A stretch of DNA of 64,000 nucleotides from a bacterium (GTDB taxonomy: Bacteria > Patescibacteriota > Gracilibacteria > JAUYGZ01): positions 19,325-83,324 of the forward strand of contig JAUYGZ010000012.1 in assembly GCA_030690415.1 (NCBI GenBank). Direction: 5' to 3'. Below, piece after piece: positions 1 through 23,937 of this stretch (position 1 is the stretch's first letter; the number at the start of each line of letters is the position of its first letter). Below the pieces are notes generated by a model. That model worked only from the letters and a program-made list of their open reading frames with translations. It did not search any database and was not told the DNA's origin. A program made the position numbers and the translations under genes.

Positions 1-3000
1 ACGGTCGAGTCCCCTTTGCTGTTCCGACCGGCATAGGCAGAATACGTGATCGAATAAAGCCCTGTCACCGGTGTCGTAAAATTACCGGCGCTATACGTCC
101 AGCCGTTGGCTACTGAGGTGGGATTATTAAAAGTAATGGTTTGAAAGTTCCCGGCAGATGAGACGGCCTGGTCAGTCGTATCATATCCAAACAGATAGTT
201 AGTGCCGGTGGTCGAACTGCTAAAGACATTGGTAGTCGTACAGCTCCTTAAGGTTTTCGTCGTCGTATCAAAATATTGCTCGCCAACGGTACAAGTCCCC
301 GGGACAGAAGAGGATTCCCGAAGCCGGATGCTGCTTGACCCGCTGAAGTTGATTGCTCCGGTTGAAGTAATTCCTGTCAATCCGGAAGCAACACCAGGAG
401 AACTAATATCCCAGACCGACGAATCGATTGTCACATTATCGCCATTATCTCCGATGGTCGCCACTCCATTCACGTCCAGCGCCCCATCCACATTCAAGGT
501 TGTCCCTGAGCTGAAAGTCAAAATCCCCGACGTGAAGCTGTCATTGGTATCACTACGAAGAAGCTGCGTGGAATCAAGGCTATCAAGAGTGCCGGAATTT
601 CCCCCATCCCTCACCACAGACCAGGTATTTGTAGCGGAGCAGGCTCTAAGCAAATTATCAGTGGAGTTGTAAAAGAGATCCCCCTCCGTACAGGTTCCCG
701 GATTGCTCGTCCCCTGGTGAACCGCCATTCTGGTGGCTCCACTCGCGTCAAGGTCTCCATTGACATCCAGCGCCGCCCCTGTATTGATCGTCAGGGTCCC
801 TGATGTCAGAGCATCAGACGCATCGCTCCTGAGAAACTGCAACGAGTCGATGGTATCCAGCGTGTCGGCATTTGAACTTCCGGACCCCAAAGCAGTCCAG
901 GTATCCGTATCAGTACACACTCTCAAAACATTATCAGTCGAATTGTAGAATAAATCCCCCTCCGCGCAGGTCCCGGGATTCGCTGAACCGGAACGAATCA
1001 CGAATCGGGTCGCTCCACTGAAATCAATAGTTCCATTACCATCCAGGGTTGTTCCTGAATTAAACGTCAAAGTCCCTGAAGTATAACTGTCAGAAGTGTC
1101 GCTTCGAACAAATTGGGCTGAATCAAGGGTATCAAGCGTCTCGGCATTGACCGTTCCACTAATGATCGGCTCAAATACAGCACCATTATTACTGATCTCC
1201 CAGCGGTTATTCCCATCATCATAGCGAATCACTCCATTCGATTCAGATCCCTGCTCAGCAACTATATCCGCATCCTGATCAGGATTTCCTGTTTCATCAG
1301 AATCCAGAGTGAAAGTGGTTCCCTGGACCGCAACATTGCCGTCCACCACTAAAGCATCACTCAGTAAGAAATAATTATTTCCAGTATCCCATTTCAGCGT
1401 TTCAGCAAGAGTCGTTCCAAATTTCAGGATCACATCACCGCCTGTATCATCACTATCGAGTGTAAAGGTACTAACAGAAGAACCGGTATCGGTATTTTGA
1501 TTGTGCAAACGGCTGTCATTTCCCTGCACAGCCACATTGGCACTTGTTTCACCATCTGTAGCCAGTTCAACTTTTCCTTTAGAACTTGTTGTAGCATCCG
1601 GAAGAGAACTGGCACCGGTAATCTGTATCCAGGCATTAGTATCAGAATCCCAAGCGTAGGTAATTTCTGTTTCACGACTCAACCGCGCCTCGGAATTACT
1701 AATGGCGGCATAAGCCTTTCCATCATGCATGTCGATATCGAGAAATCCTGATCCCGAAGGAACTATGGTTCCGTTACCGGTGGTAGCAGCCGTATCATGT
1801 ACCAAATAGACGGCAGCCCCACTGGCGGTTGACTGTCCTGAAAAATTCGCGGCATTCACACAGGCATCCACAGCAGCCAATATGGAAGTCGCCATATCCG
1901 CATTATCAGTGGCCGCGGACCCTGACTTAAATTGACAGCTGGCTGCAATCGGCGAATCCTTTGCCGTCAACACAAAACTCGATCCTCCGGAATTATAAGT
2001 AACCGTAATAATATCATCGGCAATAACCAATGCTTCGTCACTGACATAGATTTTACCACCGGCACGTATTCCACCCGTACCCGATTCCCCATTGACCAAC
2101 TGGTTGGACTGCTCGATAGGTGTTTGCCAGGATAAACCGGCCACCAGATTATCCACATAATTTTTGGTTGCGGCATCCTGGCTACTTGCTGGATCCAAAA
2201 TGTTTGAAATTCGATTGGCATCGAAATCAAAAACATCTGTGGCATCGTTGTAAAAAAGCTGACCATTGGTATTCTGGCCAAACTGAAGAGTAGCATTAGC
2301 ACCATCATTGTTGAGAATATATGAATCACTATTCGTACTCACATCAGTATTTTGGTTGTGCAAACGACCGTCATTTCCTTGCACGACCACCCCGGCAGCC
2401 ACCTCACCATTTGTTGCCAACTCTACCTTACCCTTCTCAGTGGTAGTAGCATCAGGTATGGATCCCGCTCCGGTAATCTGTATCCATGATTCACTTCCGG
2501 TAGACCAGGCATAAAGCACCTGATTATTATGTGTTAAACGAGATTCATTGCTTGTCAAGGAAGCATAAGCAACACCCTCTGTGATATCATAAAGAGTAAA
2601 TCCGGATCCACTGGCAACTACGGTACCATTTCCTGCCGGACCCACACTATCGTACAACAAATACACGTCCTCCCCATTTTGCACACTTGAGCCGGAAAAA
2701 TCAGCTGCGCTCGCGCATGCGTCAATTGCTGCCAGAATAGATCCAGCCATATCATCATCATCAAGAGCTGTAGCACCGGATTTGAATTCACAGTTGGCTG
2801 CTGTAGGAGCATCTTTTGCTGTTAGCACAAAATTCGATCCGCCTGAGTTGTAGGTAATGGTCAGCGTATCGTTTTCCACAACCAATGCTTCATCCGAGAC
2901 CACGATCTCAGATGCCGCCTTGATACCTCCCACTCCACTACCACCATCTATCAGCTGTGTGCTATGCCAAACAGGATTTTTCCAATCGGAGCCCGAGACC

Positions 3001-4661
3001 AGACTATCTACATAATCCTTTGTAGCCGCATCCTGTGCTTCGACAGGGTCTATCAGATTAATTATCCGATTGGAATCAACATCAAAGGTATCAGCTGCGT
3101 CATTATAGATAATTTGACCATCAGCATTCTGCCCAAACTGTAGTGTCGCGTCATCCGCGTCGGAATTGAGAATAAAAGAATCCTGAGAGGTACCCGTATC
3201 ACCATTCGCATAGTGGGACAAAGGAACCCAGCCATTAACATGAGAATCGAAAGCATAAATCATCAACTCCTGATGCACCAAACGAGCTTCAAAATGAACC
3301 AATTCCGCATATGTCTTACCTCCCTCCAACGCACTGGTACTAAAACCGGAACCACTAAAAGTCACAGTACCATTCCCTACAGTACTTGGAATATCATAGG
3401 TCAGAAAGATGTCCTGACCATTGATATAGGTACTCCCGGAAAAATCAGCTGCGGAAGAACAGGAGTCAAGAGCCGCCAGAATAGAGGTCGCCATAGCAGC
3501 ATTATTAGCTGCCGTTGCGCCTGAAGCGAATTCACAATTCGCTGCCGTCGGAGCATCCTTAGCGGCAAGGACAATAGTAGAGCCTCCACTATTATACGTA
3601 ATCGTAAACGTATCATTTTCGAGAACCAGAGTCTCATCTGTCACCTGCGTGTGGGTCCCTGCCTTGACACCTCCAACACCTGCACCACCATCTACCAATT
3701 GGCCGAGATTGGAAACATGCCCCTGCATGGCTTCACCCGCCTGAGCGGCATCCAAATAAGCCTTCGTTACCGCATCCTGATCATTCACCGGATCTTCCAG
3801 ATTCATCAGCAAATTCCCGTCAAAATCAAAGCTATTGGAAGCATCATTATAGCTGATCTGCCCATCGGTATTCTGACCAAACTGTAGTGTCGCATCATCC
3901 CCATCGGTATTAACAACAAAGGAATCCTCAGAAGTTCCCGGGACTCTCAGCTGAGAAGCCACAGAAAAATCAATAATTCCGGAAGAAGTAAATCCTGTAA
4001 ACCCACTGGCCACTCCCGCTGATGAGATGTCCCAGACAGAAGAATCAATAGCTACCGTATCTCCACCATCACCGAGTGTGGCAACACCATTGGCATTCAA
4101 AGTCCCTCCTATACTCAAATTCCCACTTTGATCCACAGACCAGTCGTTGCTGTCGACCACAAAATCCTCCGTACCGGTATCCACGGTCAGATCGGTATTC
4201 GTGGTCGTAATAGTCTTGTCGGTATCAGTACCAAAGACACTTTCAAAATCCTGGGTCACATCCACCCAAGTACTTGCATTACAATACCATAAGCGATTGT
4301 TTGTCGTATTGTAATAAACACGACCCTTCACACCCTCAGCACATGCTGCCGGATCAGAAGCCTGATTCTCAATTTTGAAATCAACCAGCTGATTTCCCTC
4401 CAGACTGAGATCATCGCTCAACTCAAATCGGGCCGCATCCACATCAAACTGCAGAATTTCAGAGAGAACTTCTCCAAATTTGAGAATCACAGTATCTCCG
4501 GCACCAGCCGTACCATCCTGGTCAATCGTAAAATTCATACTCGGAGCTCCCACGTCATCAGCGGAAAAATCCGTCAGATCCGCCTGGGCGAATACAGATG
4601 GTAGAGGGGCAGACAGTAAAATACTGAGCAAAAGAGCGATAAATGGTCGAAATATTCTCAT
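1..4661 (-). CDS. Giant secreted repeat surface protein with phage-tail-fibre-like modules; C-terminal part lies beyond the window start (>=1553 aa visible); paralog of 4936..11229
   Basis: Absent from the supplied ORF track because there is no stop inside the window. Manual translation from the ATG at 4661..4659 gives MRIFRPFIALLLSILLSAPLPSVFAQADLTDFSA, a signal peptide. Same-frame spot checks are open: 2330..2271 gives SDSYILNNDGANATLQFGQN and 59..3 gives LYSITYSAYAGRNSKGDST. All listed minus-strand ORFs here sit in the same -1 offset frame as the off-frame ORFs inside 4936..11229. Three QDA(A/V)TK.Y(V/L)D sites were read at about 2160, 3020 and 3765. Confidence 0.85.
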   Translation of the reverse strand, partial: MRIFRPFIALLLSILLSAPLPSVFAQADLTDFSADDVGAPSMNFTIDQDGTAGAGDTVILKFGEVLSEILQFDVDAARFELSDDLSLEGNQLVDFKIENQASDPAACAEGVKGRVYYNTTNNRLWYCNASTWVDVTQDFESVFGTDTDKTITTTNTDLTVDTGTEDFVVDSNDWSVDQSGNLSIGGTLNANGVATLGDGGDTVAIDSSVWDISSAGVASGFTGFTSSGIIDFSVASQLRVPGTSEDSFVVNTDGDDATLQFGQNTDGQISYNDASNSFDFDGNLLMNLEDPVNDQDAVTKAYLDAAQAGEAMQGHVSNLGQLVDGGAGVGGVKAGTHTQVTDETLVLENDTFTITYNSGGSTIVLAAKDAPTAANCEFASGATAANNAAMATSILAALDSCSSAADFSGSTYINGQDIFLTYDIPSTVGNGTVTFSGSGFSTSALEGGKTYAELVHFEARLVHQELMIYAFDSHVNGWVPLSHYANGDTGTSQDSFILNSDADDATLQFGQNADGQIIYNDAADTFDVDSNRIINLIDPVEAQDAATKDYVDSLVSGSDWKNPVWHSTQLIDGGSGVGGIKAASEIVVSDEALVVENDTLTITYNSGGSNFVLTAKDAPTAANCEFKSGATALDDDDMAGSILAAIDACASAADFSGSSVQNGEDVYLLYDSVGPAGNGTVVASGSGFTLYDITEGVAYASLTSNESRLTHNNQVLYAWSTGSESWIQITGAGSIPDATTTEKGKVELATNGEVAAGVVVQGNDGRLHNQNTDVSTNSDSYILNNDGANATLQFGQNTNGQLFYNDATDVFDFDANRISNILDPASSQDAATKNYVDNLVAGLSWQTPIEQSNQLVNGESGTGGIRAGGKIYVSDEALVIADDIITVTYNSGGSSFVLTAKDSPIAASCQFKSGSAATDNADMATSILAAVDACVNAANFSGQSTASGAAVYLVHDTAATTGNGTIVPSGSGFLDIDMHDGKAYAAISNSEARLSRETEITYAWDSDTNAWIQITGASSLPDATTSSKGKVELATDGETSANVAVQGNDSRLHNQNTDTGSSVSTFTLDSDDTGGDVILKFGTTLAETLKWDTGNNYFLLSDALVVDGNVAVQGTTFTLDSDETGNPDQDADIVAEQGSESNGVIRYDDGNNRWEISNNGAVFEPIISGTVNAETLDTLDSAQFVRSDTSDSYTSGTLTFNSGTTLDGNGTIDFSGATRFVIRSGSANPGTCAEGDLFYNSTDNVLRVCTDTDTWTALGSGSSNADTLDTIDSLQFLRSDASDALTSGTLTINTGAALDVNGDLDASGATRMAVHQGTSNPGTCTEGDLFYNSTDNLLRACSATNTWSVVRDGGNSGTLDSLDSTQLLRSDTNDSFTSGILTFSSGTTLNVDGALDVNGVATIGDNGDNVTIDSSVWDISSPGVASGLTGITSTGAINFSGSSSIRLRESSSVPGTCTVGEQYFDTTTKTLRSCTTTNVFSSSTTGTNYLFGYDTTDQAVSSAGNFQTITFNNPTSVANGWTYSAGNFTTPVTGLYSITYSAYAGRNSKGDST

Positions 4662-4817
4662 AGATGAGTGACAACTATTCCCCTTGAAATGAACAACAGT
4701 AAAAATATCCAATAATGACTATATCAAGCTATTCTCATTTTTGAATAAACGAACTCTAGCGAGAGAAGGTTTTGGGCTGAAGATCAAGGGGAAACCTAGC
4801 CACCTCCAGACCCCCGA

Positions 4818-4831
4818 CCCCTTGTCAGGGG
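4818..4831. repeat. GC hairpin CCCC-ttgtca-GGGG, member of a dispersed CCCC(C)-N4-6-GGGG(G) hairpin family
   Basis: Palindrome read directly in the 274-bp spacer between the two giant genes. Confidence 0.5.
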
Positions 4832-4894
4832 AGGCCCCTCCAGAATTTTATACTGCGTAGTACTTGTCTATGAACATTCAAGATGGAGTTGGCT

Positions 4895-4911
4895 CCCCCC
4901 TGATAAGGGGG
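4895..4911. repeat. GC hairpin CCCCCC-tgataa-GGGGG, same family
   Basis: Palindrome read directly, about 25 nt past the stop of 4936..11229. No U-run follows on the minus strand, so it is not a canonical terminator. Confidence 0.5.
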
Positions 4912-4935
4912 TCAGGGGGTCCGGGAGGGAGCCCC

Positions 4936-7900
4936 CTACCTCAGCTTCTTCCCCGTGTACTGAATCCGGATCTTGCTGATATCCACAAAACCGGTATACG
5001 TGTCGGCAACATTGGCTCCATCGCGATTTAATTTGAAAAACACAATCTCATCAGCTGTCAGATCTGCGTTGGAGAGGACAAATGTCTCTCGCTGAAGCTG
5101 ATTGGTCGTCCCGTTGGCAGCCTCGGTCGGCGTCAAAGCGGAGAAATCCCCGCCAACGATCGTATGATCCTCAGGGATACACGCGTATTCGATGTCCCAC
5201 TGCACGTCATCGGTATTGGTATTGCTCGGCGACCAGAAGATTTCGACTGAAATATCAGTCCCCGCGACCCAGTCATCCGGAACAGGGAAAGACCATCGTA
5301 CTGTACTGTCTCCAGTAGCATCCAAACGAAGTACAGGAATACGTCCACCAATCTTATTCCCCAGGGATGCTGAGGATCTCACGCCTCCCTCGATATCCAG
5401 CCAAAGGTACTTGGACTGGGTGTCATCCGTATAAATGACCCCTTCGACTCCAAGGGAACCGGAAATAAAAGCATCATCACCATCCAGAGTAAATCCTGCA
5501 TCTGAAATCGTCTCAGAATTTGACCCAACGGTCAGATTATTGGCTAAATCAAGATCTCCGGTATTCGTAAAGGTCGCGAACGGCGTTCCGTTGTCTTGAA
5601 TCACAAAATCCTGAGTGCTGGTGAGGTCGAAGACCAAGGCCCCGGCACTGTCGACGTCGATCGACTGGCCTTGAGTATAAGCGAGATCAAGAGAATTCGT
5701 GGTGTCCGTGTCGGTATCCGTATCAACAGCCGTCCAGGTATCCGCAACAGTACAGACCCGAAGCAGCTTATCCGTGGAATTGTAAAAGAGATCACCTTCC
5801 GCGCAGGTTCCGGGATTGGACGAGCCCTGCTGGAGAGCCAATCTGGTCGCTCCGCTGAAATCTACCGCTCCATCCGCATCAATAGTCGTTCCGACGGCAA
5901 GCGTTAGGGTCCCTGAACTCAGGCTGTCACTGGTATCACTTCTGAGAAATTGTGAAGAATCAAGGGTATCAAGAGTATCAGCGTCATCAGTCGATACCGC
6001 CAACCAGGTAGCCGCACCGGCAATACCGGTAGCAGTACAGACCTGGACCTGACTATCGGTCGTATCCAGAATCAACTCACCGATGGTGATACAAGCAGAA
6101 TTAGCAGCAGGATCAGTATTTTCACGGATTCTGAAAGAAGAGGCATTAGAAAAATTAATCGCACCCGTGGAACTCAATCCGGTAAATCCTGAAGCTACAC
6201 CTGCCGAACTGATATCCCAAATAGAGGAATCAATGGCAACAGAATCACCATTATCTCCCAGGGTCACTTGTCCGTTGGCATCGAGAATAGAATTCACCGT
6301 CACATTACCGGAAGTCGAAAGACTACCGGTTATACTCAAGTCATCGGAAAGCTCAAACTGATCATTAGAATCATTCCAAGTGAGAGTTTCCCATGAAGAA
6401 GAATTTCTTCCCAAATTAAGCACACCGTTGCTGTCCGATCCGGTTAAACTTTCCGCGATAGAGCCCTGCCCGGCTGCCTCAAGATTACCCTGAACGCGAA
6501 GATCATCCGTCAACGTGAAACGGCTATTGGCATCGTCCCAGGTCAGGCTTTCTGCCAGAGTTTGACCAAACTGAAAGGTAATATCACCACCGGTATCGTC
6601 ATCATCCAGCACAAAGGTATTAGTACTGGTCCCGGTATCGGTATTTTGAGTATGCAGACGACTGTCATTGCCCTGCACCGCGACTCCGGAGAGGACCTCA
6701 CCATCAGTCGCTAATTCAACCTTTCCTTTGGTCGTGATCGTCGCGTCAGGAACAGCGGCAAGAGTGATCTGAACCCAGACATCAGACGCATTAAAGCTGT
6801 ATGTAATACCACTAAACAAATCCAATCTGGTCTCATTGACCGCAATATCTGCGTAAGCTGTCCCATACTGGGGATTCACAATCGTAAATCCGGATCCACT
6901 GGCGGTGATAGTGCCATTCCCCACCTCGCCAACACTGTCGTGAATCATGATGAGTTCAGCACTATTCAATACACTCTGACCATCGAAATCCGCTGCCGGA
7001 GCACAAGCCGCAAGCGCGTCAAAGACAGAGCTCGCAAGATCAGCATTGTCCGTCGCGGTAGCGCCGGATTTGAATTCACAGCTGGATGCGGTCGGAGCAT
7101 CCTTAGCCGTCAGGATGAAAGAGCTGCCTCCGAAATTGTAACTCAAAGTCAGCGTATCATCCTCCAGCACAATGGTTTCATTTGAAATGGTAAGAGACCC
7201 TCCGGCACGAATTCCACCGCTTCCTCCACTCAGAAGCTGATTGGTATGAAGGAAAGGCTGCTTCCATTGTAAACCAGCCGCCAGATTATCGACGTAATTC
7301 TTCGTCGCCGCATCCTGAGACCCGCTCGGATCAGTAACATTGACCAGACGATTCGCGTCAAAATCAAAGGTATCAGAACTATCCGAATAAAGGATCTGCC
7401 CATCTGTATTCTGTCCAAACTGAAGGGTAGCGTTCGTCCCATCACTATTGAGAATAAAGGGATCCTGAGTGGTGCCAGCATCCGTATTTTGAGTATGAAG
7501 CCGGCTGTCATTACCCTGCACCACAACACCTGAGCTCGTTTCACCGTCAGTCCCCAACTCCACGACACCAGAAGTGGTCTCCGTAGCATCTGGAATAGCT
7601 CCAACACCGGTAATCTGAACCCACTCAGTGTTATCACTGTTCCAAGTATAGGTCACCTGGGTCCCCTGAGTGATACGAGTTTCATTCTGTACTAAATCGG
7701 CAAAATCCCTCCCCTGTGTAAGATTATTGGATGTAAATCCAAGCCCGCTCATCGTTACGGTTCCATTTCCATTCGTGCCCACGTCATCATGAACAAGAAA
7801 AACCTGAGCGGAAGAAGACTCCGAGTAACTGGAAAAGTTAGATAATCCGACACAGGCAACAAGGACATCAATAATGGAAGTCGCCAGATCGGCATTCGTA

Positions 7901-10900
7901 GCCGCCGCCACTCCGGACTTAAACTCACAACTGGCCGGTGTTGGAGAATCCTTGGCGGTAAGAATAGTCGTCATCGCTCCGGCATGGTGAACAATGGTAA
8001 TCGTGTCATCCTCCAACACCAGACTCTCATCCGTCACGGTAATTCTCCCTCCTCCCCGAACTCCTCCTACACCTGTCCCTCCATCAACCAGCTGATTCAC
8101 GGTCTCAACAGGATCTCTCCAGGAAAGTCCATTCACAAAATCATCCACATACTTTTTCGTGGCGGCATCCTGAGCGGAACTTGGATCGAGAAGATTGATC
8201 AGGCGATTAGAGTCAAAATCAAAAGTATTACCGGTATCACTGAAAGAGATCTGGCCTCCCGAGTTTTGTCCGAATTGGAGAATGGCATCATCCCCATCGG
8301 TATTGATGATAAAGAGATCCTGATTAGTCCCACCGGGAATGACAGAAGTTGGAAACACATCCCCAACCCCAAGAATAACCACATTCCCGTCAGATACACC
8401 GATATCAGCCCCATCAAGCGTTGTGGCGTTACCTCCATCTCGGACAATTGTCCAGGTATCAGCCGCGGAACAAGCCCAAAGAAAAGTATCTCCAGTATTG
8501 AAAAACACATCGCCGGGAGTACAGCTCACGGGATTCGAAGCGCCGGAAGGAAGAGCTAATCGAGTGGCGGCACTCAAATCAATGGAACCCTCTCCATCGA
8601 GAGTGGTTCCAACAGCCAGAGTTAAAGTTCCACTCGTCACGCTATCAGACTGATCTGTCCGAAGGAACTGAGAGGAATCCAAAGTATCCAGAGTATCAGC
8701 ATCAGATGATGTTGATACAGGAGTCCAGACAGCAGCGCCGGCAACACCGATCCCGGTACAGACCTGAATCTCGACATCAGTGGTATCCACAATCAGCTCA
8801 CCAAGGGTAGAGCAAGAGACATTCGTCGCCGGGTCACTATCTTCACGGATCCGAAATGAAGTCGTTTCGGAAAAATTAACCGATCCGGCCGAAAAATCAC
8901 CCTCAACTGACAAGTCATCATTGAATTGAAAGCGCGAATTACTCTGAGAATACAAAAGCGTCTTACTGAGAGTCGCCCCGAACTGCAAGATCACATCTCC
9001 GACACCGGTATCATCATTATCGATCACAAAACTCTCCGCGTTCGTCGCGCCAGGAATAACCGTGACTGGGAAAAGTCCCCCAGCTCCAAGAATAACAAGA
9101 TTGCCGTCTGAAGTCCCCACATCAGCACCATCCAGCAAGTCAGCACTCCTTGCGTAAGGAAGAGTCCCCAGAGCCACACGATCCGTAGCATTAGCCGTGC
9201 CATCGACATCCAGGAGTTCATAACTCGTATCAGCTGCCCCATCAGCTTTTACTTCAACCTGAAGGTAAAAATGGACTGAGCTGTTGAAATCAGGAATCGG
9301 TGTCACCGTTCCAATATTCACCTGAAAATATCCATTGGTATTTGGAGTTACCGTCTGCTCTTCTTCATACGATGAAAACCCGGGTGCGCCACCAGGTATG
9401 TCACCGGTCCCATCGAAATCAGCCGGAGCATCCCAGTCAGCATCACTCCAGATACTAAATCGGAATGTGTGCGCGGTCGTCAAAGCGTGCCCACTCGCAT
9501 TTTTGAGAATACCTTCGTAAGGCATGATTGTCGGCGTCGTAGGCGCAGCCTGCACTCGTAAAACAAAGCAATAGCTCAAAACAATAACTAAAGCACCAAG
9601 AAGCAATCCCAGAAGGACATCCCGTAAAACACCAAAACGACGAAGAACAAGCAGTATTGTCAAAAGAAGTGCAGCAATAAGAGACAAATACACCCAGAAA
9701 AGAGTGCCCCCCCATATATTATAGCTGATTTCAGAAGCAATTTCATCAGGAGCAAAGAATTGAAGCGCAAGTAGACTTGACTCAAGTTCTTGACGAATGT
9801 CTCCCTCTGAAAATCCGGGTCTCAAGAGGGTCAGAAAAGTTCCCTTTGAAAGTGAGAGAACCCTGCCTCCATACACCGCGACAATCTTCAAAACATCTCC
9901 ATGAACGAGACTCTCAGGATAAGAATAATCAAAGGTTCCATCAGCATGCGGAGTCAGAACAATAGCCTGCTCCAAACGGGCCGACATCACGATCAATTCC
10001 TTAGCACTGAGTGCTAAGAGCCTAATCTGAGGAACATCCGTCAAAACCGTCATGACCGATCCTTCCGAATACACAGACTGGCTAAAAAATGTATCATCAA
10101 GCTCATCGACACTCAGGACCTGAGGGTTATCGATAAGAAGCCCACTCTCCACGCTAAAGTGCTCTATCAGCAGAGTCTGATCATCATCGGTCCTCAGTCG
10201 AGCCACATACTTTCCATCCGGGAGAGATTCCTTTGGCTGAAAAGTGACCGTCCCGTCAGGACGGCTATTAAATAATTTAACCTCGTACTCTCTGACCCCA
10301 TCCGACAGTCTCACCACGGAAACCCCCGGTACCGAAAAAGAAAAAAGTGGTTGAGAATCGTTTGTTACCGTGGTTGGCTCTCCATCAAAATCCGTAGGTA
10401 GAAAAGGAGGGAAAGTGGCCTCCCCTGAGAAGGGCTCAGGGGTTGGAGAGGGGGCAGTCTGAGAAGTCACTATTTGTGCCGGCAAATAGGTCTGGAGAGA
10501 GTGCGATGTCTGAGCTGAAGGGACAATTACCTGCGCGGGTGCCGATGGGGCAAAAGGAACTGTCGGAGCAGTAGGTCGAAGGGTTTCAATCACACAGGAT
10601 CGACTGCATCCATCACCGGAGCGGGTATTGCCATCATCACATTGTTCGCCAATCTCCATTCGGGCATTTCCACACACCGGAACTTCGTCCTGACAAAAAG
10701 CATCACATCCATCACCATTGAGTCGATTTCCATCATCACAGTCCTCACCGAAATCAAGGCTGGTGTTTCCACATGAACTCCCATATACCCCACCACCACC
10801 TCCTCCTCCGCCACCACCTCCACCGCCTCCAACAACAGGAGTCGTAACACAAGCACTGGTATCAAAAGTACAAGAAGCTGAACAGCCCAGAATGCCACTA

Positions 10901-11229
10901 TCGAATCCCTGAGTAACACAGGTTTGACTATTCAAATTCACGCTATCGCAAGCTTCAGACACTTCCAAAACGGCATTTCCACACTGTGGCCCCAATCCGC
11001 AGAGCACAGCCGGCTGAAGAGAAAATGATCCCGAAGTCCCGATAGAACCAACAGGCGAAATCTGAGAACAAAGACTGTACCCGGAAGATGAAGAGTCCGC
11101 TGCGGGATTAAGATCTCCCTGAAACTGAAAAGAAGGGCTGGACGCCGCAAAAGTCTGCGCAAATGAAAAACCCAGTAGTATTACCAGGAGAAGCCCCTTA
11201 TACCCAATTGCTGTCATTAAAGATTTCAT
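4936..11229 (-). CDS. Giant (2097 aa) surface protein: signal peptide, 3 cysteine-rich repeats, Gly14, Pro-rich linker, internal TM hairpin, about 1500 aa of tail-fibre-like repeat modules
   Basis: ORF track, ATG confirmed at 11229. N-terminus is MKSLMTAIGYKGLLLVILLGFSFAQTFA. Amino acids 83-213 carry three CGN...(E/D).GE.CD.GN...GDGC..(S/F)C repeats, the Myxococcus-type cysteine-rich repeat/DUF4215 pattern. The Gly14 run is at nt 10789..10830. Two hydrophobic helices lie at aa ~507-557. Repeated motifs include PDAT.TT.G.VELATDGE, DP...QDAATK.YVD, TLQFGQN and NP..C..GD.F(F/Y)N..D..L..C. Confidence 0.95.
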   Translation of the reverse strand: MKSLMTAIGYKGLLLVILLGFSFAQTFAASSPSFQFQGDLNPAADSSSSGYSLCSQISPVGSIGTSGSFSLQPAVLCGLGPQCGNAVLEVSEACDSVNLNSQTCVTQGFDSGILGCSASCTFDTSACVTTPVVGGGGGGGGGGGGGGVYGSSCGNTSLDFGEDCDDGNRLNGDGCDAFCQDEVPVCGNARMEIGEQCDDGNTRSGDGCSRSCVIETLRPTAPTVPFAPSAPAQVIVPSAQTSHSLQTYLPAQIVTSQTAPSPTPEPFSGEATFPPFLPTDFDGEPTTVTNDSQPLFSFSVPGVSVVRLSDGVREYEVKLFNSRPDGTVTFQPKESLPDGKYVARLRTDDDQTLLIEHFSVESGLLIDNPQVLSVDELDDTFFSQSVYSEGSVMTVLTDVPQIRLLALSAKELIVMSARLEQAIVLTPHADGTFDYSYPESLVHGDVLKIVAVYGGRVLSLSKGTFLTLLRPGFSEGDIRQELESSLLALQFFAPDEIASEISYNIWGGTLFWVYLSLIAALLLTILLVLRRFGVLRDVLLGLLLGALVIVLSYCFVLRVQAAPTTPTIMPYEGILKNASGHALTTAHTFRFSIWSDADWDAPADFDGTGDIPGGAPGFSSYEEEQTVTPNTNGYFQVNIGTVTPIPDFNSSVHFYLQVEVKADGAADTSYELLDVDGTANATDRVALGTLPYARSADLLDGADVGTSDGNLVILGAGGLFPVTVIPGATNAESFVIDNDDTGVGDVILQFGATLSKTLLYSQSNSRFQFNDDLSVEGDFSAGSVNFSETTSFRIREDSDPATNVSCSTLGELIVDTTDVEIQVCTGIGVAGAAVWTPVSTSSDADTLDTLDSSQFLRTDQSDSVTSGTLTLAVGTTLDGEGSIDLSAATRLALPSGASNPVSCTPGDVFFNTGDTFLWACSAADTWTIVRDGGNATTLDGADIGVSDGNVVILGVGDVFPTSVIPGGTNQDLFIINTDGDDAILQFGQNSGGQISFSDTGNTFDFDSNRLINLLDPSSAQDAATKKYVDDFVNGLSWRDPVETVNQLVDGGTGVGGVRGGGRITVTDESLVLEDDTITIVHHAGAMTTILTAKDSPTPASCEFKSGVAAATNADLATSIIDVLVACVGLSNFSSYSESSSAQVFLVHDDVGTNGNGTVTMSGLGFTSNNLTQGRDFADLVQNETRITQGTQVTYTWNSDNTEWVQITGVGAIPDATETTSGVVELGTDGETSSGVVVQGNDSRLHTQNTDAGTTQDPFILNSDGTNATLQFGQNTDGQILYSDSSDTFDFDANRLVNVTDPSGSQDAATKNYVDNLAAGLQWKQPFLHTNQLLSGGSGGIRAGGSLTISNETIVLEDDTLTLSYNFGGSSFILTAKDAPTASSCEFKSGATATDNADLASSVFDALAACAPAADFDGQSVLNSAELIMIHDSVGEVGNGTITASGSGFTIVNPQYGTAYADIAVNETRLDLFSGITYSFNASDVWVQITLAAVPDATITTKGKVELATDGEVLSGVAVQGNDSRLHTQNTDTGTSTNTFVLDDDDTGGDITFQFGQTLAESLTWDDANSRFTLTDDLRVQGNLEAAGQGSIAESLTGSDSNGVLNLGRNSSSWETLTWNDSNDQFELSDDLSITGSLSTSGNVTVNSILDANGQVTLGDNGDSVAIDSSIWDISSAGVASGFTGLSSTGAINFSNASSFRIRENTDPAANSACITIGELILDTTDSQVQVCTATGIAGAATWLAVSTDDADTLDTLDSSQFLRSDTSDSLSSGTLTLAVGTTIDADGAVDFSGATRLALQQGSSNPGTCAEGDLFYNSTDKLLRVCTVADTWTAVDTDTDTDTTNSLDLAYTQGQSIDVDSAGALVFDLTSTQDFVIQDNGTPFATFTNTGDLDLANNLTVGSNSETISDAGFTLDGDDAFISGSLGVEGVIYTDDTQSKYLWLDIEGGVRSSASLGNKIGGRIPVLRLDATGDSTVRWSFPVPDDWVAGTDISVEIFWSPSNTNTDDVQWDIEYACIPEDHTIVGGDFSALTPTEAANGTTNQLQRETFVLSNADLTADEIVFFKLNRDGANVADTYTGFVDISKIRIQYTGKKLR

Positions 11230-11523
11230 TTGATTTTGATTTTGGTACTTTTTGCTTCTTTTGAGCGAATGAAAGTGAAAGTGAAAGGAAGATGAGAATC
11301 ACCTTTTTGAGCAGCCTCATAGCCAGACTTTCATATCATTATAGCAGATATTCAGGCCTTTTTGAAGACCTATAAGGAAGCTGAAGAGAGATTAAACTTG
11401 ACGCATTTCCAAATTAATGAATTATTTATTCGATGCTGTCATGGCGAGGAGGTACAGCGAAAATCATTCCCAAAATCTCTCCCCTGTGGTAAAAGGAAAA
11501 TACTACTTAATGATTGATCTCCC

Positions 11524-12501
11524 ATGAAAAGATTTTTCTCCCTTATCATCCTGAGCGTACTTTTAGTCTTCTTCACTGCTCCTCACGCCTCAGCAACGAG
11601 CTATTCCGACGTCCCTCAAAGCCACCCCCACTTTGTCGCCATAAATTACCTAAGTGATGCAGGTGTCCTACAAGGATACGAAGGAGGTCTTTTCAAACCC
11701 GACCAACTCATCAATCGAGTCGAAGTGCTGAAAGTGATCCTGGTCCATGCCGGAGTCAAATTCCTCGAAGATGGACCCGACCAGGTCTTCAGTGATGTGG
11801 CCAAAAACCAATGGTTTGGGCTCATCGTCGCCACGGCGAAGGGACTCGGCATCGTCAATGGACATCCCGACGGCAGCTTCACACCCGCTACAAATGTCAG
11901 AAGAGCCGAGTTTATGAAGATGATGCTGGAAACAAACCATTTTAAAAAAACTCAATGGGCCGATCAGCAACTCTTCACGGATGTTCCCAAGGAGGAATGG
12001 CATGCGCCGTACATGAACTACGCCGGAAAATCTGGACTCATCAACACGGACTCAAATGGAAAACTCTATCCTTCAAAAGAACTGACCAGAGACGAAGTCG
12101 CTGAAATGCTTTACCTGATGAGGGTCATTCTAAAAGGAGGGGATACCCAGTTTTTGCTTAGTCAAGGCGAGGCTCAAATGGCACAAATCGAAACCTACAT
12201 CAGTGCCAAAAATGTCGCGGCAGCTAAAAGAGCTGCTGAACTGGCGCTCAACATGACTCAAAAAGCAGTGTTAAATGTCCCCAACAATACTGTTGCCCTA
12301 GGAGCTGAAAAACTTGCGGATTCCTATAATCTCCTGGTGGACTCATACATCGCAGCAACACAAAAAGACAAAGAGAAAGCCACCTCACTCGCTAATCAAT
12401 CGAAAGAAATGGCTACCACAGCCTGGGAAATCAACAATGATATTCAGCTCCTCGCCAGACACATCAAAGACCGGGCGGATGAGATCCTGGCACAGCTGTG
12501 A
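11524..12501 (+). CDS. Secreted SLH-domain (S-layer homology) protein with C-terminal helical domain
   Basis: ATG at 11524. Signal peptide is MKRFFSLIILSVLLVFFTAPHASA. SLH-like repeats include YSDVPQSHPHFVAINYLSDAGVLQGY..F.P...INRVEVLKVIL and FSDVAKNQWFGLIVATAKGLGIVNGHPDGSFTPATNVRRAEFMKMML. Confidence 0.8.
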   Translation: MKRFFSLIILSVLLVFFTAPHASATSYSDVPQSHPHFVAINYLSDAGVLQGYEGGLFKPDQLINRVEVLKVILVHAGVKFLEDGPDQVFSDVAKNQWFGLIVATAKGLGIVNGHPDGSFTPATNVRRAEFMKMMLETNHFKKTQWADQQLFTDVPKEEWHAPYMNYAGKSGLINTDSNGKLYPSKELTRDEVAEMLYLMRVILKGGDTQFLLSQGEAQMAQIETYISAKNVAAAKRAAELALNMTQKAVLNVPNNTVALGAEKLADSYNLLVDSYIAATQKDKEKATSLANQSKEMATTAWEINNDIQLLARHIKDRADEILAQL

Positions 12502-12558: not shown

Positions 12559-14679
12559 TCATGACAACTTCTCAAGCAATCCAAGATTAATCCTCCCCAT
12601 TTCGTCGATCGCCAGAACTTTCACCTTCACCCTATTACCCATCTGGACGACGTCCGTTACGGCATTGACTCGTTCCGTTCGAGAAAGCTTGGAAATATGA
12701 ATCAATCCATCCTTCCCCCCTGGGATATTGACAAAAGCTCCGAAATCCATAATTCTATTCACTTCTCCCACCAGCTCATCACCTTCCTTTGCGATATAAG
12801 TCTGTTCCAAAATCATGGCCTTGGCTTTTTCTCCGGCTTCATGGTTGGGAGCCGTCACAAAAATCATCCCTGAATCATCTATATCGATCTCAGCACCGGA
12901 TTCAGCAGTAATCTTTTGAATGGTCTCACCACCCTTCCCAATCACCAGTCGAATCATCTCGGGATCGATTTGAATCGTCTCAATAGAAGGCGCCGTCGGA
13001 GAAAGCTCAGGACGTGGTACACTAATAACCTTCGCCATTTCAGTGGCAATAAAATCCCGGCCGATTTTCGCCTTTGCGAAAGCCTCCTTCATCCGTTCAA
13101 CAGAAATTCCGGAAACTTTGATATCCATCTGAAGCGCGGTAATCCCCTTTTCCGTTGAAGCGTACTTCAGATCCATATCCCCCGCAAAATCCTCCATTCC
13201 CTGAATATCCGTTAGAAGACGGTATTGCCCGGATTCATCATCCGTGACCATCCCCATGGCGATACCCACGACCGGTGCTTCGATCGGAACTCCTCCTGCC
13301 ATAAGCGCAAGACTCGAACCACAGACCGAACCCATAGAGCTGGACCCATTGCAGGCCAGGACTTCGGAAACCACCCTCATGGTATAGGGAAAGTCTTCCT
13401 TTTTTGGGAGAACAGGAACCAATGCCCGCTCCGCCAAAAACCCATGACCGATTTCACGACGTCCTACTCCCCTATTTCCCTTGGCTTCACCGACGGAATA
13501 GCCGGGAAAATTGTAATGGTGAAAATAACTCTTTTTGTAATCATGATCCATCAGATCAATGATCTGAGAAGCCCCCGGTCCTGCCAGAGTAATAACGGAA
13601 AGAATCTGGGTCTCTCCCCGCTGAAAAATGGCTGATCCATGTGGACGGGGAAGCGGATCCAGCATCACAGAAACCGGTCTCACCTCATCCTCAGTCCTCC
13701 CATCAAGACGCTTTCCCTTTTCCAAAATATTCTTTCTCATATACTTCTTGAAGATTTTGTCAACAGATTCTTCCACATTTTTCCTGGTCCAGTGACTAAA
13801 AGCTTCATCTTTGCTCTCGATCTTCTCGGCATGCGCTTTCAAAACAGAATCTACTAAAGCATGCAGTGCCTTGTAGACCCCCGGCTTGGAATCCTGATAA
13901 AGACCATCGAGTTGCTCAGCAGTAATCATCTCCTGAAGCTCAATGTAGAGAGTCTCATCCGGCAAGTTGAGGACCAATTCATGACCAAGCTCGCGTCCCG
14001 CCTTTTTCCTCAGCTCCTCCTGCAGAGCACAGAGTTTTTTGATCTCGTCATGAGCAAGCTGAATCGCCGCAATCATCTGATCATCGGTTATTTGCTTTGC
14101 ACCGGCTTCTACCATGGTCACGGCAGCATCCGTCCCTGCGACCACCAGATCCAGATCGCCATCTTCTATCTGCTGATACGTCGGATTGACAATCAGTTCT
14201 CCATTCATCATACCAATGCGAACCGCTGCTACGGGAGCCATAATGGGAAAACCACCCACAACGAGAGACGCGGAAGCCGCAGTAATCGCGTGGGGTCCGG
14301 GATCCGTCACGCCATCGGATGACAAAACGGAAACAGAGATCACGACATCATTTGTCGTTCCCTTGGGGAAAAGAGGACGAATAGGACGATCAATCATACG
14401 GGCCTTGAGAATGCACTCCTCAGGAGGACGTCCTTCACGCTTGATAAAACGACTTCCTTTGATCTTTCCTGCCGCGTAGAGTTTTTCTTCGTAATCGACA
14501 AGCAAGGGAAAAAAATCCCCACCTTCACGGGGAGCGCCCATCGTGGACGCGGAAAGAATCACCACATCACCGAGACGCAATACCACCGCGCCATCGGCCT
14601 GCATGGCCATCTGACCTGAAGAAAGAGAGAGAGCTGATCCGGAAAGGGTTCCGGTGACCTCATGGAGAGTTGAACTCAT
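12559..14679 (-). CDS. pnp: Polyribonucleotide nucleotidyltransferase (PNPase)
   Basis: 706 aa. Two RNase PH-like halves (FPLLVDYEEKLYAAGKIKGSRFIKREGRP; NGSSSMGSVCGSSLALMAGGVP) followed by C-terminal KH and S1 segments. Sits downstream of rpsO as in the classical rpsO-pnp operon. Confidence 0.97.
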   Translation of the reverse strand: MSSTLHEVTGTLSGSALSLSSGQMAMQADGAVVLRLGDVVILSASTMGAPREGGDFFPLLVDYEEKLYAAGKIKGSRFIKREGRPPEECILKARMIDRPIRPLFPKGTTNDVVISVSVLSSDGVTDPGPHAITAASASLVVGGFPIMAPVAAVRIGMMNGELIVNPTYQQIEDGDLDLVVAGTDAAVTMVEAGAKQITDDQMIAAIQLAHDEIKKLCALQEELRKKAGRELGHELVLNLPDETLYIELQEMITAEQLDGLYQDSKPGVYKALHALVDSVLKAHAEKIESKDEAFSHWTRKNVEESVDKIFKKYMRKNILEKGKRLDGRTEDEVRPVSVMLDPLPRPHGSAIFQRGETQILSVITLAGPGASQIIDLMDHDYKKSYFHHYNFPGYSVGEAKGNRGVGRREIGHGFLAERALVPVLPKKEDFPYTMRVVSEVLACNGSSSMGSVCGSSLALMAGGVPIEAPVVGIAMGMVTDDESGQYRLLTDIQGMEDFAGDMDLKYASTEKGITALQMDIKVSGISVERMKEAFAKAKIGRDFIATEMAKVISVPRPELSPTAPSIETIQIDPEMIRLVIGKGGETIQKITAESGAEIDIDDSGMIFVTAPNHEAGEKAKAMILEQTYIAKEGDELVGEVNRIMDFGAFVNIPGGKDGLIHISKLSRTERVNAVTDVVQMGNRVKVKVLAIDEMGRINLGLLEKLS

Positions 14680-14684
14680 AAAGA

Positions 14685-14721
14685 AACAAACTGAAAAAAT
14701 AAGAAAGAGCTTCAGTTTGTT
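14685..14721 (-). promoter_or_regulatory. 11-bp stem hairpin in the pnp 5' leader, immediately upstream of the start codon
   Basis: aacaaactgaa ... ttcagtttgtt read directly, ending 6 nt before the pnp ATG. Its position recalls the RNase III-processed autoregulatory leader hairpin of E. coli pnp, by analogy only. Confidence 0.35.
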
Positions 14722-14821
14722 GCCCGTGGAGTTGCAAGTGTTGAAGCTGAGAGAAACTCAGATCCTGCACTTGAAACTACGAGCGGACAAACCGACACAA
14801 TGGATTGTAATGGAAGGAAAT

Positions 14822-14849
14822 AAAAAAAAGAAGGTCATTTCTGACCTTC
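14822..14849 (-). terminator. Rho-independent terminator/attenuator after rpsO
   Basis: On the minus strand, gaaggtca-gaaa-tgaccttc (8-bp stem) is followed by a T8 run, 7 nt after the rpsO stop. Confidence 0.7.
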
Positions 14850-14855
14850 TCCTAA

Positions 14856-15302
14856 TTATTTTCGAATGTTGAGCTTCCTCGTAATCTCTTCGTAGAGATC
14901 CTTATCTTTTCCCTGAACATAGCGAAGCAAACGTCGTCGTTTACCAACCATCAGAAGCAATCCTCTTCGGGAGTGAGTATCTTTCTTGTGAGACTGAAGA
15001 TGATTGGTCAGTGAATTAATCTTATCAGTGAGCAGAGCGATCTGAACACGAGGAGACCCCGTATCCTTTTTGTGCTGCTGAAACTCGGCAATCACTTCCT
15101 TTTTAGGCTGTCGGGCAATCGCCTGAGATTTCTTCACAACCGCCGTCTCCTTTTTGACCAACTTTTTCGGAGTTGCCTTCTTGGGAGGAGTAGCCTTTTT
15201 GCTTGAAGCGGACGACTTCGCTGTCTTTACGGTCTTGGAGGCCTTTGAAGCCTTAGAAGCAACAACTTTCTTTTTGACGGGAGTCTTTTTTGCGGTGGCC
15301 AT
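14856..15302 (-). CDS. rpsO: 30S ribosomal protein S15 with a ~60-aa Lys/Ala/Ser/Pro-rich N-terminal extension
   Basis: The C-terminal ~88 aa match the S15 pattern ([49 protein letters not shown]). The N-terminus is [54 protein letters not shown] confirmed at 15302. Confidence 0.95.
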
Positions 15303-15420
15303 AGATAAGAGTCAGTTAAATTGAGCGAAGAAACCTTAACATAGGATGGTTAATTTGACAAGAAGAGCTTAATTTTTTCAGTCTTGCAAAAGAAGAAAAA
15401 GGGGTTTAACGTTATTTTAG

Positions 15421-15481
15421 AAAAAAGATCTGAAAGTGCAAGGCACTTGAGTAGGAATTGTTTCCCAAGACAGATCTTTTT
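15421..15481 (-). terminator. Terminator-like compound hairpin after the 15482..15844 ORF
   Basis: aaaagatctg/cagatctttt 10-bp outer stem enclosing an agtgc-aag-gcact hairpin, with a T-run on the minus strand directly after the stop. Confidence 0.4.
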
Positions 15482-15844
15482 TCATTTTCGCTCATGTTCA
15501 ATAAAGCAACTATAGACGAAATATCCTTTCGAGCGCTCTTCCACTATAACAACAATATTCCATTGTTTGAGAGTGAGAGATAATCGAAAAAATTGCTTCC
15601 TCCCCATTTTCCTCACCTCAACCAAAGACCCAAATCGAACCACATCTTCAATCAAAAGAATAATCAAGAATCGTTCAATTTGATCATCAATATCTCTCTC
15701 CCGAGCAAAAGTAATGTGATTATAAAAAGACCGGGTAACATGTACGCATATCTCAAGAGCCTCACAATATAAAGGAGATCTTTCTCTCAATATTTGGAAT
15801 GCTTTCTTCGCCGAAAGTTTAATCAAAAGCAGTATCTCTTTCAT
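15482..15844 (-). CDS. Hypothetical protein, DUF4258-like (putative RNase-type toxin fold)
   Basis: 120 aa. The pattern H-ITFA-RERDIDDQIERF ... KQWNIVVIVEERSKGYFVYSCFIE resembles the remembered DUF4258 layout (H..A..R..R.I....I ... hydrophobic strand ... vITvY). Looks AT-rich by eye. Has its own terminator. Confidence 0.35.
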   Translation of the reverse strand: MKEILLLIKLSAKKAFQILRERSPLYCEALEICVHVTRSFYNHITFARERDIDDQIERFLIILLIEDVVRFGSLVEVRKMGRKQFFRLSLTLKQWNIVVIVEERSKGYFVYSCFIEHERK

Positions 15845-15957
15845 TCTTCCCCAAACACAATATTCACCACAAACGCTTATTCAAAAAGAGTATACATATT
15901 TTCATAGGCGGGCAAAGAAAAAGAGAATAGAGTACAGTTGACATGATTTAGAAATCC

Positions 15958-21054: not shown

Positions 21055-21114
21055 GTTGAAAAAGCCAGAAATCAAGAGTATCGTAGCAGATAATATCATT
21101 CATTACCCTGAATT

Positions 21115-21483
21115 ATGGCCGATTCAGAACAAATCATCGCTCTGCTCACGTCAATCAAAAATGATCAGGGAGAAATCAAGCAAGCCCTGAGAGCCATTTA
21201 CGGTGATACCGAAAACCAGGACGACCTCATTAAAAAAATCGGAAAAAGCATCACCACAGAAATCAGAACTGACATGCAAAAACTGGAAAGAAGCCTGAAA
21301 GAGATGGAAACTAAAATAGGATCTATCCCAAAAATTCTTGAATCACTGACGAAACTCATCACCATCAATCAACAGCTCAATCCCGGATACATCAAAGAAA
21401 TCAAGGACGACGTCGACTTTATCAGGCATGAATACTACACACTGGAGACCAAACTCAACAACATCTCACAAAAAATAAGATAA
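21115..21483 (+). CDS. Hypothetical coiled-coil protein
   Basis: 122 aa with a heptad-like charged sequence and no TM segment. Sits on the opposite strand between ribA and ribD. Followed by the palindrome aagaatt-ttg-aattctt. Confidence 0.5.
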   Translation: MADSEQIIALLTSIKNDQGEIKQALRAIYGDTENQDDLIKKIGKSITTEIRTDMQKLERSLKEMETKIGSIPKILESLTKLITINQQLNPGYIKEIKDDVDFIRHEYYTLETKLNNISQKIR

Positions 21484-21518
21484 GAATTTTGAATTCTTCA
21501 TTCTTAATTTTTCATTAT

Positions 21519-22716: not shown

Positions 22717-22723
22717 AACAAGA

Positions 22724-22755: not shown

Positions 22756-22775
22756 CCAAGGGGTGAGGAGATACT

Positions 22776-23887: not shown

Positions 23888-23937
23888 AGAAAATGTGCAT
23901 ATTGGTATGTTGTGGCTGCTGGCATAAAACCATGCCA

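Follow-up and report, generated by a model that had tools for sequence, protein, structure and literature searches.

Two giant exported proteins with phage-fibre modules at a conserved Gracilibacteria-labelled locus are probably cell-borne attachment fibres

What are two tandem genes for giant, phage-fibre-like proteins doing beside the housekeeping gene pnp in a bacterium of the Patescibacteria group? The question is raised by the first 11,229 positions of a 64,000-nucleotide (nt) stretch (positions 19,325 to 83,324 of contig JAUYGZ010000012.1, assembly GCA_030690415.1), called the window throughout, in which gene 1 and gene 2 lie on the minus strand. An original prediction, made from the letters alone, had taken them for two paralogous giant proteins filling about 17% of the window, and this holds: their open reading frames (ORFs) encode at least 1553 and 2097 amino acids (aa), occupy 17.5% of the window, and yield products that are 41% identical over 1333 aa. 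Our reading, to which a probability of about 70% is given, is that both are extracellular, probably trimeric, cell-borne fibres for attachment to a host or a surface, not a prophage remnant. It starts from observed export signals, mosaic architecture, phage homology of the repeated module, chromosomal context, synteny and rarity, and these together suggest an adhesive role.

4936..11229, minus strand: gene 2, an intact ORF of 2097 aa; a predicted Cys-rich membrane anchor fused to a mosaic fibre protein
3..4661, minus strand: gene 1, a secreted mosaic fibre protein of at least 1553 aa, its C-terminus cut by the window start
11143..11229, minus strand: signal peptide of gene 2, aa 1-29, ending in SFAQTFA before AS (translation, hydropathy scan)
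4362..4661, minus strand: signal peptide (aa 1-26) and conserved N-terminal region (aa 27 to about 100) of gene 1 (translation, comparison with relatives)

Both proteins begin with a cleavable signal peptide. That of gene 1, read from the translation, is canonical (MRIFRPFIALLLSILLSAPLPSVFAQA) and stands at the head of a frame open from position 3, at the window edge, to the ATG at 4661. The exact product of gene 2 was also called on Logan contig SRR13727534_382925 (L001).

3189..3932, minus strand: gene 1 fibre module 1, aa 244-491, a short copy without the PDAT tail
2334..3188, minus strand: gene 1 fibre module 2, aa 492-776, which holds the Pfam Phage_T7_tail match
1479..2333, minus strand: gene 1 fibre module 3, aa 777-1061, which served as search query and for the structure model
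7471..8325, minus strand: gene 2 phage-type fibre module 1, aa 969-1253
6628..7470, minus strand: gene 2 phage-type fibre module 2, aa 1254-1534

Both proteins repeat one module far beyond chance. Its five copies, three in gene 1 and two in gene 2, measure 248-285 aa, close to the 250-285 aa foreseen, and are pairwise 48-59% identical over 245-285 aa. In the DNA, the copies are spaced 855 nt apart (744 nt in the case of the short first one) and share 60-74% identity with the reference copy, which indicates that the duplications are old, not recent. A hidden Markov model (HMM) trained on the five copies finds each of them again at E 1e-123 to 1e-157, as it must by construction. The expected TLQFGQN appears as (T/I)LQFGQN in all five, and the QDA(A/V)TK motif starts at 3794, 3050 and 2195 in gene 1 and at 8187 and 7332 in gene 2, each within about 35 nt of the predicted three and two positions (about 2160, 3020 and 3765; about 7300 and 8150). 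Two details had to be revised. The PDAT...KG.VEL motif, expected in each module, is present in four of the five, the first gene 1 module missing its last ~37 aa, and the Cys-bracketed element placed inside each module belongs to a separate repeat of about 91 aa that flanks the module arrays.

The module has homologues in phages. By BLASTP its aa 46-257 align to protein P0166 with 36% identity (E 1e-32) and to P0167 with 35% (E 4e-33). The genes of both adjoin Portal_T4, Peptidase_S77 prohead protease and Gp23 major capsid genes on the T4-like metagenomic phage contigs L166-L168, which makes the module, taken whole, a module of phage virion fibres. P0167 has no signal peptide, and its N-terminus matches Pfam BppL_N as well as PHROG 16641 'tail fiber protein' (E 1e-10). 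At the level of motifs, Pfam PF03906 Phage_T7_tail matches gene 1 at aa 524-553 with 27.0 bits against a cutoff of 25.2, a match that covers only profile positions 121-150 of 157 and consists of the QDAATKxYVD motif alone. QDAATK also matches PHROG 1640 'tail protein', and a PDB profile search with it retrieved tail fibre gp9 (E 3.4e-4), KN1 depolymerase tailspikes and HylP. The PDAT motif had been likened to lambda Stf; the two align (EDADTTRKGIVQLSS / LEDADTTRKGIVQLSSATN) at 52% over 25 aa with a pairwise E of 0.13, alone not significant, and the likeness is upheld by the proteins sharing the PDAT region, which fall in PHROG tail, tail-fibre and tail-collar-fibre families. A Foldseek comparison of a single-module AlphaFold2 (AF2) model, the check proposed by the original prediction, succeeded in one of its two databases: BFVD returned phage proteins (E 4.8e-6 to 1.6e-4), and the PDB, as given below, returned nothing significant. 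On the whole, the proposal that these proteins are built from tail-fibre modules is supported. A tblastn search of 50,697 GenBank phage records with the module gave no match, and pattern scans of IMG/VR and JGI metagenomes gave motif-level or N-terminal-half matches, with no new full module among the matches listed.

The cellular copies carry a feature of their own. Cys133 and Cys158 of module 3 (1860-1937) sit in a globular insert; both residues are present in 13 cellular modules, both are lost (to G and Y) in two, and the pair is absent from the phage copies. Joint retention or loss in cells and absence in phages indicate a lineage-specific disulfide, probably added in the cellular lineage. 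The AF2 monomer of the module has a mean predicted local distance difference test score (pLDDT) of 52 and is confident only at aa ~90-200, where an alpha/beta insert scores mostly 55-93 in blocks of 10 residues. Its shaft regions score below 50, as would be expected if the flanks fold only as a trimer.

The whole module is rare. When one module was run exhaustively with HMMER against 1.84 billion cluster representatives, 991 proteins matched at E<=1e-3, only about 10 of which hold all of it (P0121, P0122, P0127, P0132-P0135, P0137 and two fragments). Most others match only aa ~31-66 (QDAATKxYVD) or ~244-283 (PDAT), often many times per protein, and P0166 and P0167 form a third group that matches the central part as well. 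Gene 2 without its DUF4215 part found 11 proteins in 5.8 billion clusters, and its tip alone two more; the full-length search returned hundreds of DUF4215 proteins that cover 2-9% of gene 2, as would fit a likeness confined to the Cys-rich repeats, and are uninformative on the fibre part. The rarity may be partly technical: the short-read contig L001 stops 44 bp past gene 2, at the start of the paralogous gene 1, so repeat-rich fibre genes are probably under-represented and their rarity inflated.

10585..10992, minus strand: gene 2 Cys-rich acidic repeats (DUF4215/TIGR02232), aa ~80-215 (Pfam, NCBIfam)
9550..9711, minus strand: gene 2 transmembrane hairpin, aa 507-530 and 537-560, with the basic loop RRFGVLRD (hydropathy scan)
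9136..9543, minus strand: gene 2 NDOM, a conserved domain of about 136 aa directly after the internal signal peptide

How such fibres could be held on a cell is suggested by their N-terminal regions. The Cys-rich repeats of gene 2 match Pfam PF13948 (E 9.7e-9, 35.8 bits, cutoff 27) and NCBIfam TIGR02232, 'Myxococcus cysteine-rich repeat' (E 1.8e-17, 62.8 bits, cutoff 20.8); gene 1 has no DUF4215/TIGR02232 repeats. A Pro-rich linker follows, and then two hydrophobic helices, the second of which ends in VQA before APTTP, an AXA site. On contig L005 (1471-5056), from Ca. Gracilibacteria bacterium RS_3_32, the only GTDB species-representative genome with a near-complete module, a 482-aa anchor with a C-terminal transmembrane helix and a 714-aa fibre with its own signal peptide (SFA before ADDTTP) are encoded by separate adjacent genes. 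The second helix of gene 2 would therefore be a retained signal peptide, and gene 2 is best read as a fusion of two genes that are separate in RS_3_32. The arrangement suggests that internal processing by signal peptidase after VQA is possible, and, because a transmembrane helix is followed by a retained signal peptide, both halves would face outwards. Within the Cys-rich region lies a run of 15 Gly (aa 133-147, 10789-10833) written in a mixture of GGN codons; P0122 and the L005 anchor have comparable runs.

Behind the internal signal peptide, NDOM is common to gene 2, P0122, L003_a, L169_a, P0127, P0124, L005_b and P0137. The N-terminus of gene 1 is 37-49% identical to those of P0123, L169_d and L169_e, and 37-57% identity is found among gene 1-type proteins with different shafts and tips, which makes this region a candidate cell-proximal docking region.

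207..1148, minus strand: gene 1 array of about 3.5 Cys-bracketed ~91-aa repeats, aa 1172-1485 (273-276 nt DNA period)
8431..8706, minus strand: gene 2 ~91-aa Cys-bracketed repeat, aa 842-933 (own HMM, regular-expression scan, DNA repeat families D3 and D4)
5713..6195, minus strand: gene 2 Cys-bracketed repeats, aa 1679-1839 (regular-expression scan, HMM)
4939..5709, minus strand: gene 2 C-terminal tip domain CTERM_A, aa 1841-2097, which ends in a beta-sandwich
3..233, minus strand: start of a possible C1q/BclA_C-like head of gene 1, aa 1477-1553, truncated (weak matches only)

A further Cys-bracketed repeat lies in gene 1 at aa 94-137. The tip of gene 2, CTERM_A, is conserved in P0121, P0128, P0292 and P0293, at 46-58% identity to gene 2. 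Its AF2 model has a mean pLDDT of 55, with ~53-80 per 10-residue block in the last 120 aa, and its best Foldseek match in the PDB is the receptor-binding C-terminus of lambda gpJ (8xcj_F, E 1.1e-5), followed by Eph ligand-binding, MAM and CBM jelly-rolls, all with low template-modelling (TM) scores. Pfam assigned no family to isolated PDAT segments, the Cys-bracketed repeat or the gene 2 tip, and phmmer against the PDB with both proteins gave nothing significant beyond weak pappalysin-type matches to the Cys-rich repeats of gene 2.

11524..12501, plus strand: SLH protein of 325 aa, divergent, with a signal peptide, three SLH repeats and a C-terminal part beyond them (Pfam SLH, E 1.1e-30)
12559..14679, minus strand: pnp (Pfam)

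The surroundings of the two genes are cellular. The SLH and pnp neighbours named by the original prediction were both recovered with Pfam, and the proteins from there on are identical to those of an NCBI metagenome-assembled genome (MAG), beginning with MDP2691454 (SLH) and MDP2691455 (pnp). Also in the window are genes for S15, PriA, GlyRS, ArgRS, helicases, two more SLH proteins, and enzymes that make riboflavin, purines and NAD. Its other 52 kb (11.5-64 kb) yielded housekeeping and envelope genes only and no phage gene, and guanine-cytosine content is uniform across the window. Cluster mates of window proteins at >=90% identity are labelled Candidatus Gracilibacteria, placed by NCBI in the Patescibacteria group, in keeping with the episymbiotic lineage that had been thought plausible. 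The name Gracilibacteria is usually linked with recoding of UGA to Gly. Genetic code 25 was considered for this organism and ruled out: TGA closes 8 of the 31 long ORFs, and under table 11 the genes read through cleanly, so TGA serves as a stop and the code is standard.

The same site recurs in relatives with other contents. Contig L169 reads PriA, S15, pnp, SLH, five surface-protein genes, then CAP-domain, GroEL and GroES genes; L002 carries P0122 (DUF4215, transmembrane helix, NDOM and two modules), P0125, a 1085-aa protein, SLH and a Na/H-exchanger gene; neither holds phage genes. L003/L004 have a pnp fragment, SLH, a 1692-aa DUF4215-transmembrane-fibre protein, P0121 (two modules and a gene 2-type tip) and another fibre. 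A conserved locus with shuffled content is seen on L002, L003/L004, L005, L169 and L171. The SLH gene adjoins fibre genes in L002, L003 and L169, the window copy being 54% identical to that of L169, and the pnp genes of the window and L169 share 76% identity, yet the two loci have different sets of fibre genes. Together with the signal peptides, the membrane hairpin of gene 2 and the housekeeping genes of the window, this synteny bears out the view that the proteins are cellular rather than phage products.

HMMs were built for seven blocks (DUF4215 repeats, NDOM, module, Cys repeat, tip A, tip B and C1q-like head), and nearly every protein scanned combines them differently. Tip A closes a fibre in gene 2 and P0121 and a beta-helix-like repetitive protein in P0128, so this tip moves between unrelated shafts. 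An N-terminus that stays constant, a shaft made of modules and a tip that varies would be the signature of receptor-binding fibre repertoires. Three observations on L169 may be added here. P0128 (10001-13207, 1068 aa) has a body that, by eye, looks like a right-handed beta-helix in tailspike or pectate-lyase style, with the gene 2-type tip at its end. Genes for surface proteins of 612 and 849 aa with a gene 1-type N-terminus lie at 13208-17684. In at least the 849-aa protein, L169_e, there is a short Gly-X-Y run of collagen type (GAPGPQGPQGVPGPG), which hints at trimeric assembly.

A working picture can be drawn from this. Genes 1 and 2 would belong to a fast-evolving 'fibre island' beside the SLH-pnp-S15-PriA genes of a standard-code relative of Gracilibacteria-labelled MAGs. 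The N-terminal half of gene 2 would form a secreted Cys-rich DUF4215 region ending in a transmembrane helix, with the second helix as the retained signal peptide of the fibre half; the hairpin may tether its fibre, or signal peptidase may cut after VQA and free the fibre, with NDOM then holding it. Gene 1 would be secreted separately, with its own conserved N-terminal docking region. The shafts would be strings of the 285-aa module and ~91-aa repeats, each repeat closed by a Cys-Cys hairpin. The module, most simply acquired from phages, would be bounded by the junction motifs DPxxxQDAATKxYVD and PDATxxxKGxVELA and would enclose a globular alpha/beta insert that the Cys pair stabilises in cellular copies. 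The distal tips appear interchangeable, that of gene 2 being a predicted beta-sandwich akin to lambda gpJ, Eph ligand-binding domains and CBM jelly-rolls, and that of gene 1 possibly a C1q/BclA-like head. Conserved N-termini would hold the fibre on the cell and variable tips would bind ligands, be they on a host cell, a partner cell or some other surface, roles proposed because of the analogy with phage fibres and with the MAT fibres of Bdellovibrio. We infer trimerisation, internal cleavage and docking to the DUF4215/SLH envelope as parts of the same picture.

Several points weigh against it. The adhesive role is drawn from sequence and analogy, and the trimeric geometry is assumed. AF2 monomers are poor outside the central insert, Foldseek TM-scores reach only 0.24-0.36, and the module found nothing in the PDB at E<=0.001 (best E 0.028). 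The phage homologues might be head or neck fibres instead of tail fibres, because their genes adjoin head genes. The absence of phage genes is direct on one side of the locus only; on the other side it is read from the syntenic relatives L169 and L002. The C1q/BclA-like head of gene 1 is a weak assignment: its C1q match is sub-threshold (E 0.089, 13.5 bits, cutoff 23.7) in a domain truncated by the window start, the C-terminus of its relative P0123 matches BclA_C at E 7.4e-5 with 23.1 bits against a cutoff of 38, and a PDB sequence search with the P0123 head gave nothing significant. The kinship with MAT fibres is faint as well. The gene 2 NDOM matches NCBIfam Bdello_MAT_N (NF053851) at E 1.6e-5 with 24.7 bits over ~40 residues, where the cutoff is 60, and hhalign of the gene 2 N-domain to a Bacteriovoracaceae fibre N-terminus covers 27 columns at a probability of 12%; MAT membership is therefore not claimed.

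A bolder extension would make the fibre island a host-range determinant, in which receptor-binding fibre cassettes exchange shaft modules, and perhaps tips, with T4-like phages, which would target either these bacteria themselves or their host cells. The DUF4215 protein would then act as a baseplate-like socket, and anchor and fibre would come fused or split, the fused form being cut at its internal signal peptide. Taken whole, this is unlikely.

Attachment may also be the wrong function. Genes 1 and 2 could encode structural parts of the envelope, such as an S-layer-associated spacer, a sheath or a glycocalyx fibre, possibly serving as phage decoys rather than specific adhesins. The constant synteny with an SLH protein, the three SLH proteins in the window, the length given to a repetitive, disulfide-braced shaft, and the conserved chromosomal site, which suggests a core envelope function, would all suit such parts. 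However, Pfam finds no SLH or other wall-binding domain in either protein, the SLH repeats being on the separate neighbouring gene; gene turnover and tip swapping are rapid at a pnp identity of 76%, as is typical of receptor-binding proteins under diversifying pressure; and the gene 2 tip resembles ligand-binding jelly-rolls including the receptor-binding domain of gpJ. We regard a purely structural role as doubtful.

That the locus is the tail-fibre part of a prophage, a defective prophage or a tailocin, with other structural genes beyond the window start, is very improbable. The module is homologous to phage fibre proteins, phage tail-fibre motifs are present, and the flank past position 1 lies outside the sequence read, all of which such a locus would explain. 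Yet cleavable signal peptides on both proteins, and the DUF4215 ectodomain and transmembrane hairpin of gene 2, are foreign to virion fibres; the PriA-S15-pnp-SLH-fibre arrangement recurs in several relatives, where the arrays run on into CAP, GroEL and GroES genes (L169) or SLH and the Na/H exchanger (L002) rather than phage genes; and the other 52 kb of the window, phage-free and even in base composition, point the same way. Least probable of all is a targeting part of a contact-dependent killing or delivery system (a polymorphic toxin or predatory weapon), for although giant modular exoproteins often bear toxins and the Absconditabacteria, relatives of this lineage, are reported to include predators (PMC11452946), Pfam, PHROGs and NCBIfam reveal no toxin, peptidase, S74 or enzymatic domain in either protein, no immunity-like small ORF or secretion-system gene is adjacent, and the missing gene 1 C-terminus looks like a small beta-rich head and not a toxin.

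11338..11366, minus strand: promoter-like site 5' of gene 2, TTCAAA-17-TATAAT with TG (consensus scan only)
4718..4815, minus strand: spacer between gene 2 and gene 1, with a terminator-like hairpin (4815-4790) and a promoter-like site (4745-4718) (consensus scan only)
Inside genes 1 and 2: small ORFs in other frames, for example 202-672 and 7984-8559, both plus strand (mechanical ORF list)

In the consensus scans of the spacers, promoter and terminator counts were not above those of shuffled sequence. Elsewhere in the window, the three SLH-domain proteins lie at 11524-12501, 28540-29607 and 59878-61437, and the second of them combines SLH with a cupredoxin/plastocyanin-like domain. Genes for ribD, ribA, ribB, lumazine synthase, riboflavin synthase, purD, a fumarate-lyase-family enzyme (Pfam Lyase_1) and nadB- and nadC-like proteins are found at 19813-23938, 26055-27380, 31109-32440 and 48722-53106, a riboflavin, purine and NAD biosynthetic capacity that is unusual for a Patescibacteria-group genome. 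GTP cyclohydrolase II (21519-22196) and DHBP synthase (22081-22779), which often form a single RibBA protein, are encoded here by ORFs that share 116 nt but lie in different frames; the mechanical ORF call may have misplaced a start codon, or a fused gene may contain a frameshift. Two ATPases stand alone among metabolic genes, one histidine-kinase-like and bearing a DUF4325 STAS-like domain (47254-48297), the other of AAA_14 type (61525-62745).

To our knowledge, how ultra-small Patescibacteria recognise and attach to their hosts is largely unknown beyond type IV pili, and our literature search found no paper that links surface proteins of this group with phage fibre modules. The locus supplies candidates that are defined by sequence, namely exported fibres whose shafts derive from phages and whose tips can be swapped, encoded at a conserved site with contents that vary among close relatives. 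Should genes 1 and 2 encode fibres for host recognition, their tips could help to predict, or to fish out, the hosts of uncultivated lineages, and the borrowing of phage receptor-binding hardware known from Bdellovibrio MAT fibres would extend to a second, unrelated host-dependent lineage. The sharing of modules between phage and cell also flags candidate phages linked to this ecosystem.

Among known systems, the exosporium fibres of BclA type and other C1q-headed collagen-like fibres possibly share a head with gene 1 and P0123, all matches being sub-threshold; they differ in their collagen repeats, which are absent from genes 1 and 2 and represented by the short Gly-X-Y run in L169_e. The 'endosialidase-like' S74 fibres of Bacteroidota, such as P0130 of Pedobacter cryoconitis, are likewise cellular, bear many QDAATKxYVD motifs, and contain GD.(F/Y)YN(T/S)...L..(Y/C) hairpin motifs like the Cys-bracketed repeat of the window. 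Unlike genes 1 and 2, they are without the 285-aa module and end in Peptidase_S74, and identity is 26-28% over short stretches. Peribacteria and Peregrinibacteria are described by Anantharaman et al. 2016 (PMC4736985) as having large, Cys-rich, exported and strain-variable proteins with a proposed role in attachment to other cells. Such DUF4215/TIGR02232 repeats are found above threshold in the N-terminal third of gene 2, whereas a keyword search of that paper gave no passage mentioning phage-fibre modules.

The phage proteins P0166 and P0167 have one module each, no signal peptide, an N-terminus of BppL_N or tail-fibre type and no Cys pair. In contrast, genes 1 and 2 have two to three modules in tandem, export signals and a housekeeping context, with a membrane anchor in gene 2. 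The junction motifs of the window module correspond to T7 gp17-type and lambda Stf-type tail-fibre motifs.

The closest functional parallel is provided by the MAT fibres of Bdellovibrio, a bacterium that lives off other bacteria. These are signal-peptide-bearing, phage-tail-fibre-like trimers with a ~130-aa N-domain and swappable tips (PMC10769870), and Caulton et al. (2024, PMC10769870) showed them on the predator surface and binding to prey glycans. Genes 1 and 2 resemble them as chromosomal, signal-peptide-bearing, phage-tail-fibre-like proteins. A conserved domain of ~130 aa directly behind the signal peptide, a shaft that is long and repetitive, exchangeable tips at the C-terminus and a multi-gene repertoire with mosaic shuffling are further parallels; as in MATs without S74, the tips CTERM_A, CTERM_B and C1q-like are spread mosaically across the family. 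Unlike MAT fibres, they have no S74 chaperone/protease domain by Pfam, their shaft consists of the 285-aa module with a globular insert and Cys-bracketed repeats, gene 2 is fused to a DUF4215 membrane anchor, the host belongs to the Patescibacteria, and the genes are clustered at one locus beside SLH. No PDB chain named Bdellovibrio or MAT protein was matched by phmmer at E<=1, and gene 1 does not match Bdello_MAT_N, the only model that matches gene 2-type N-domains, weakly and below its cutoff (four of nine members, best E 1e-6). An apparently MAT-like fibre with an S74-type C-terminus, both judged by eye, is encoded on contig L068 (1356-5046) of the Bacteriovoracaceae UBA7695. It carries DPxxxQ(D/E)AATK.YVD junction motifs, which shows that this motif is common to phage fibres and to cell-borne fibres of several phyla.

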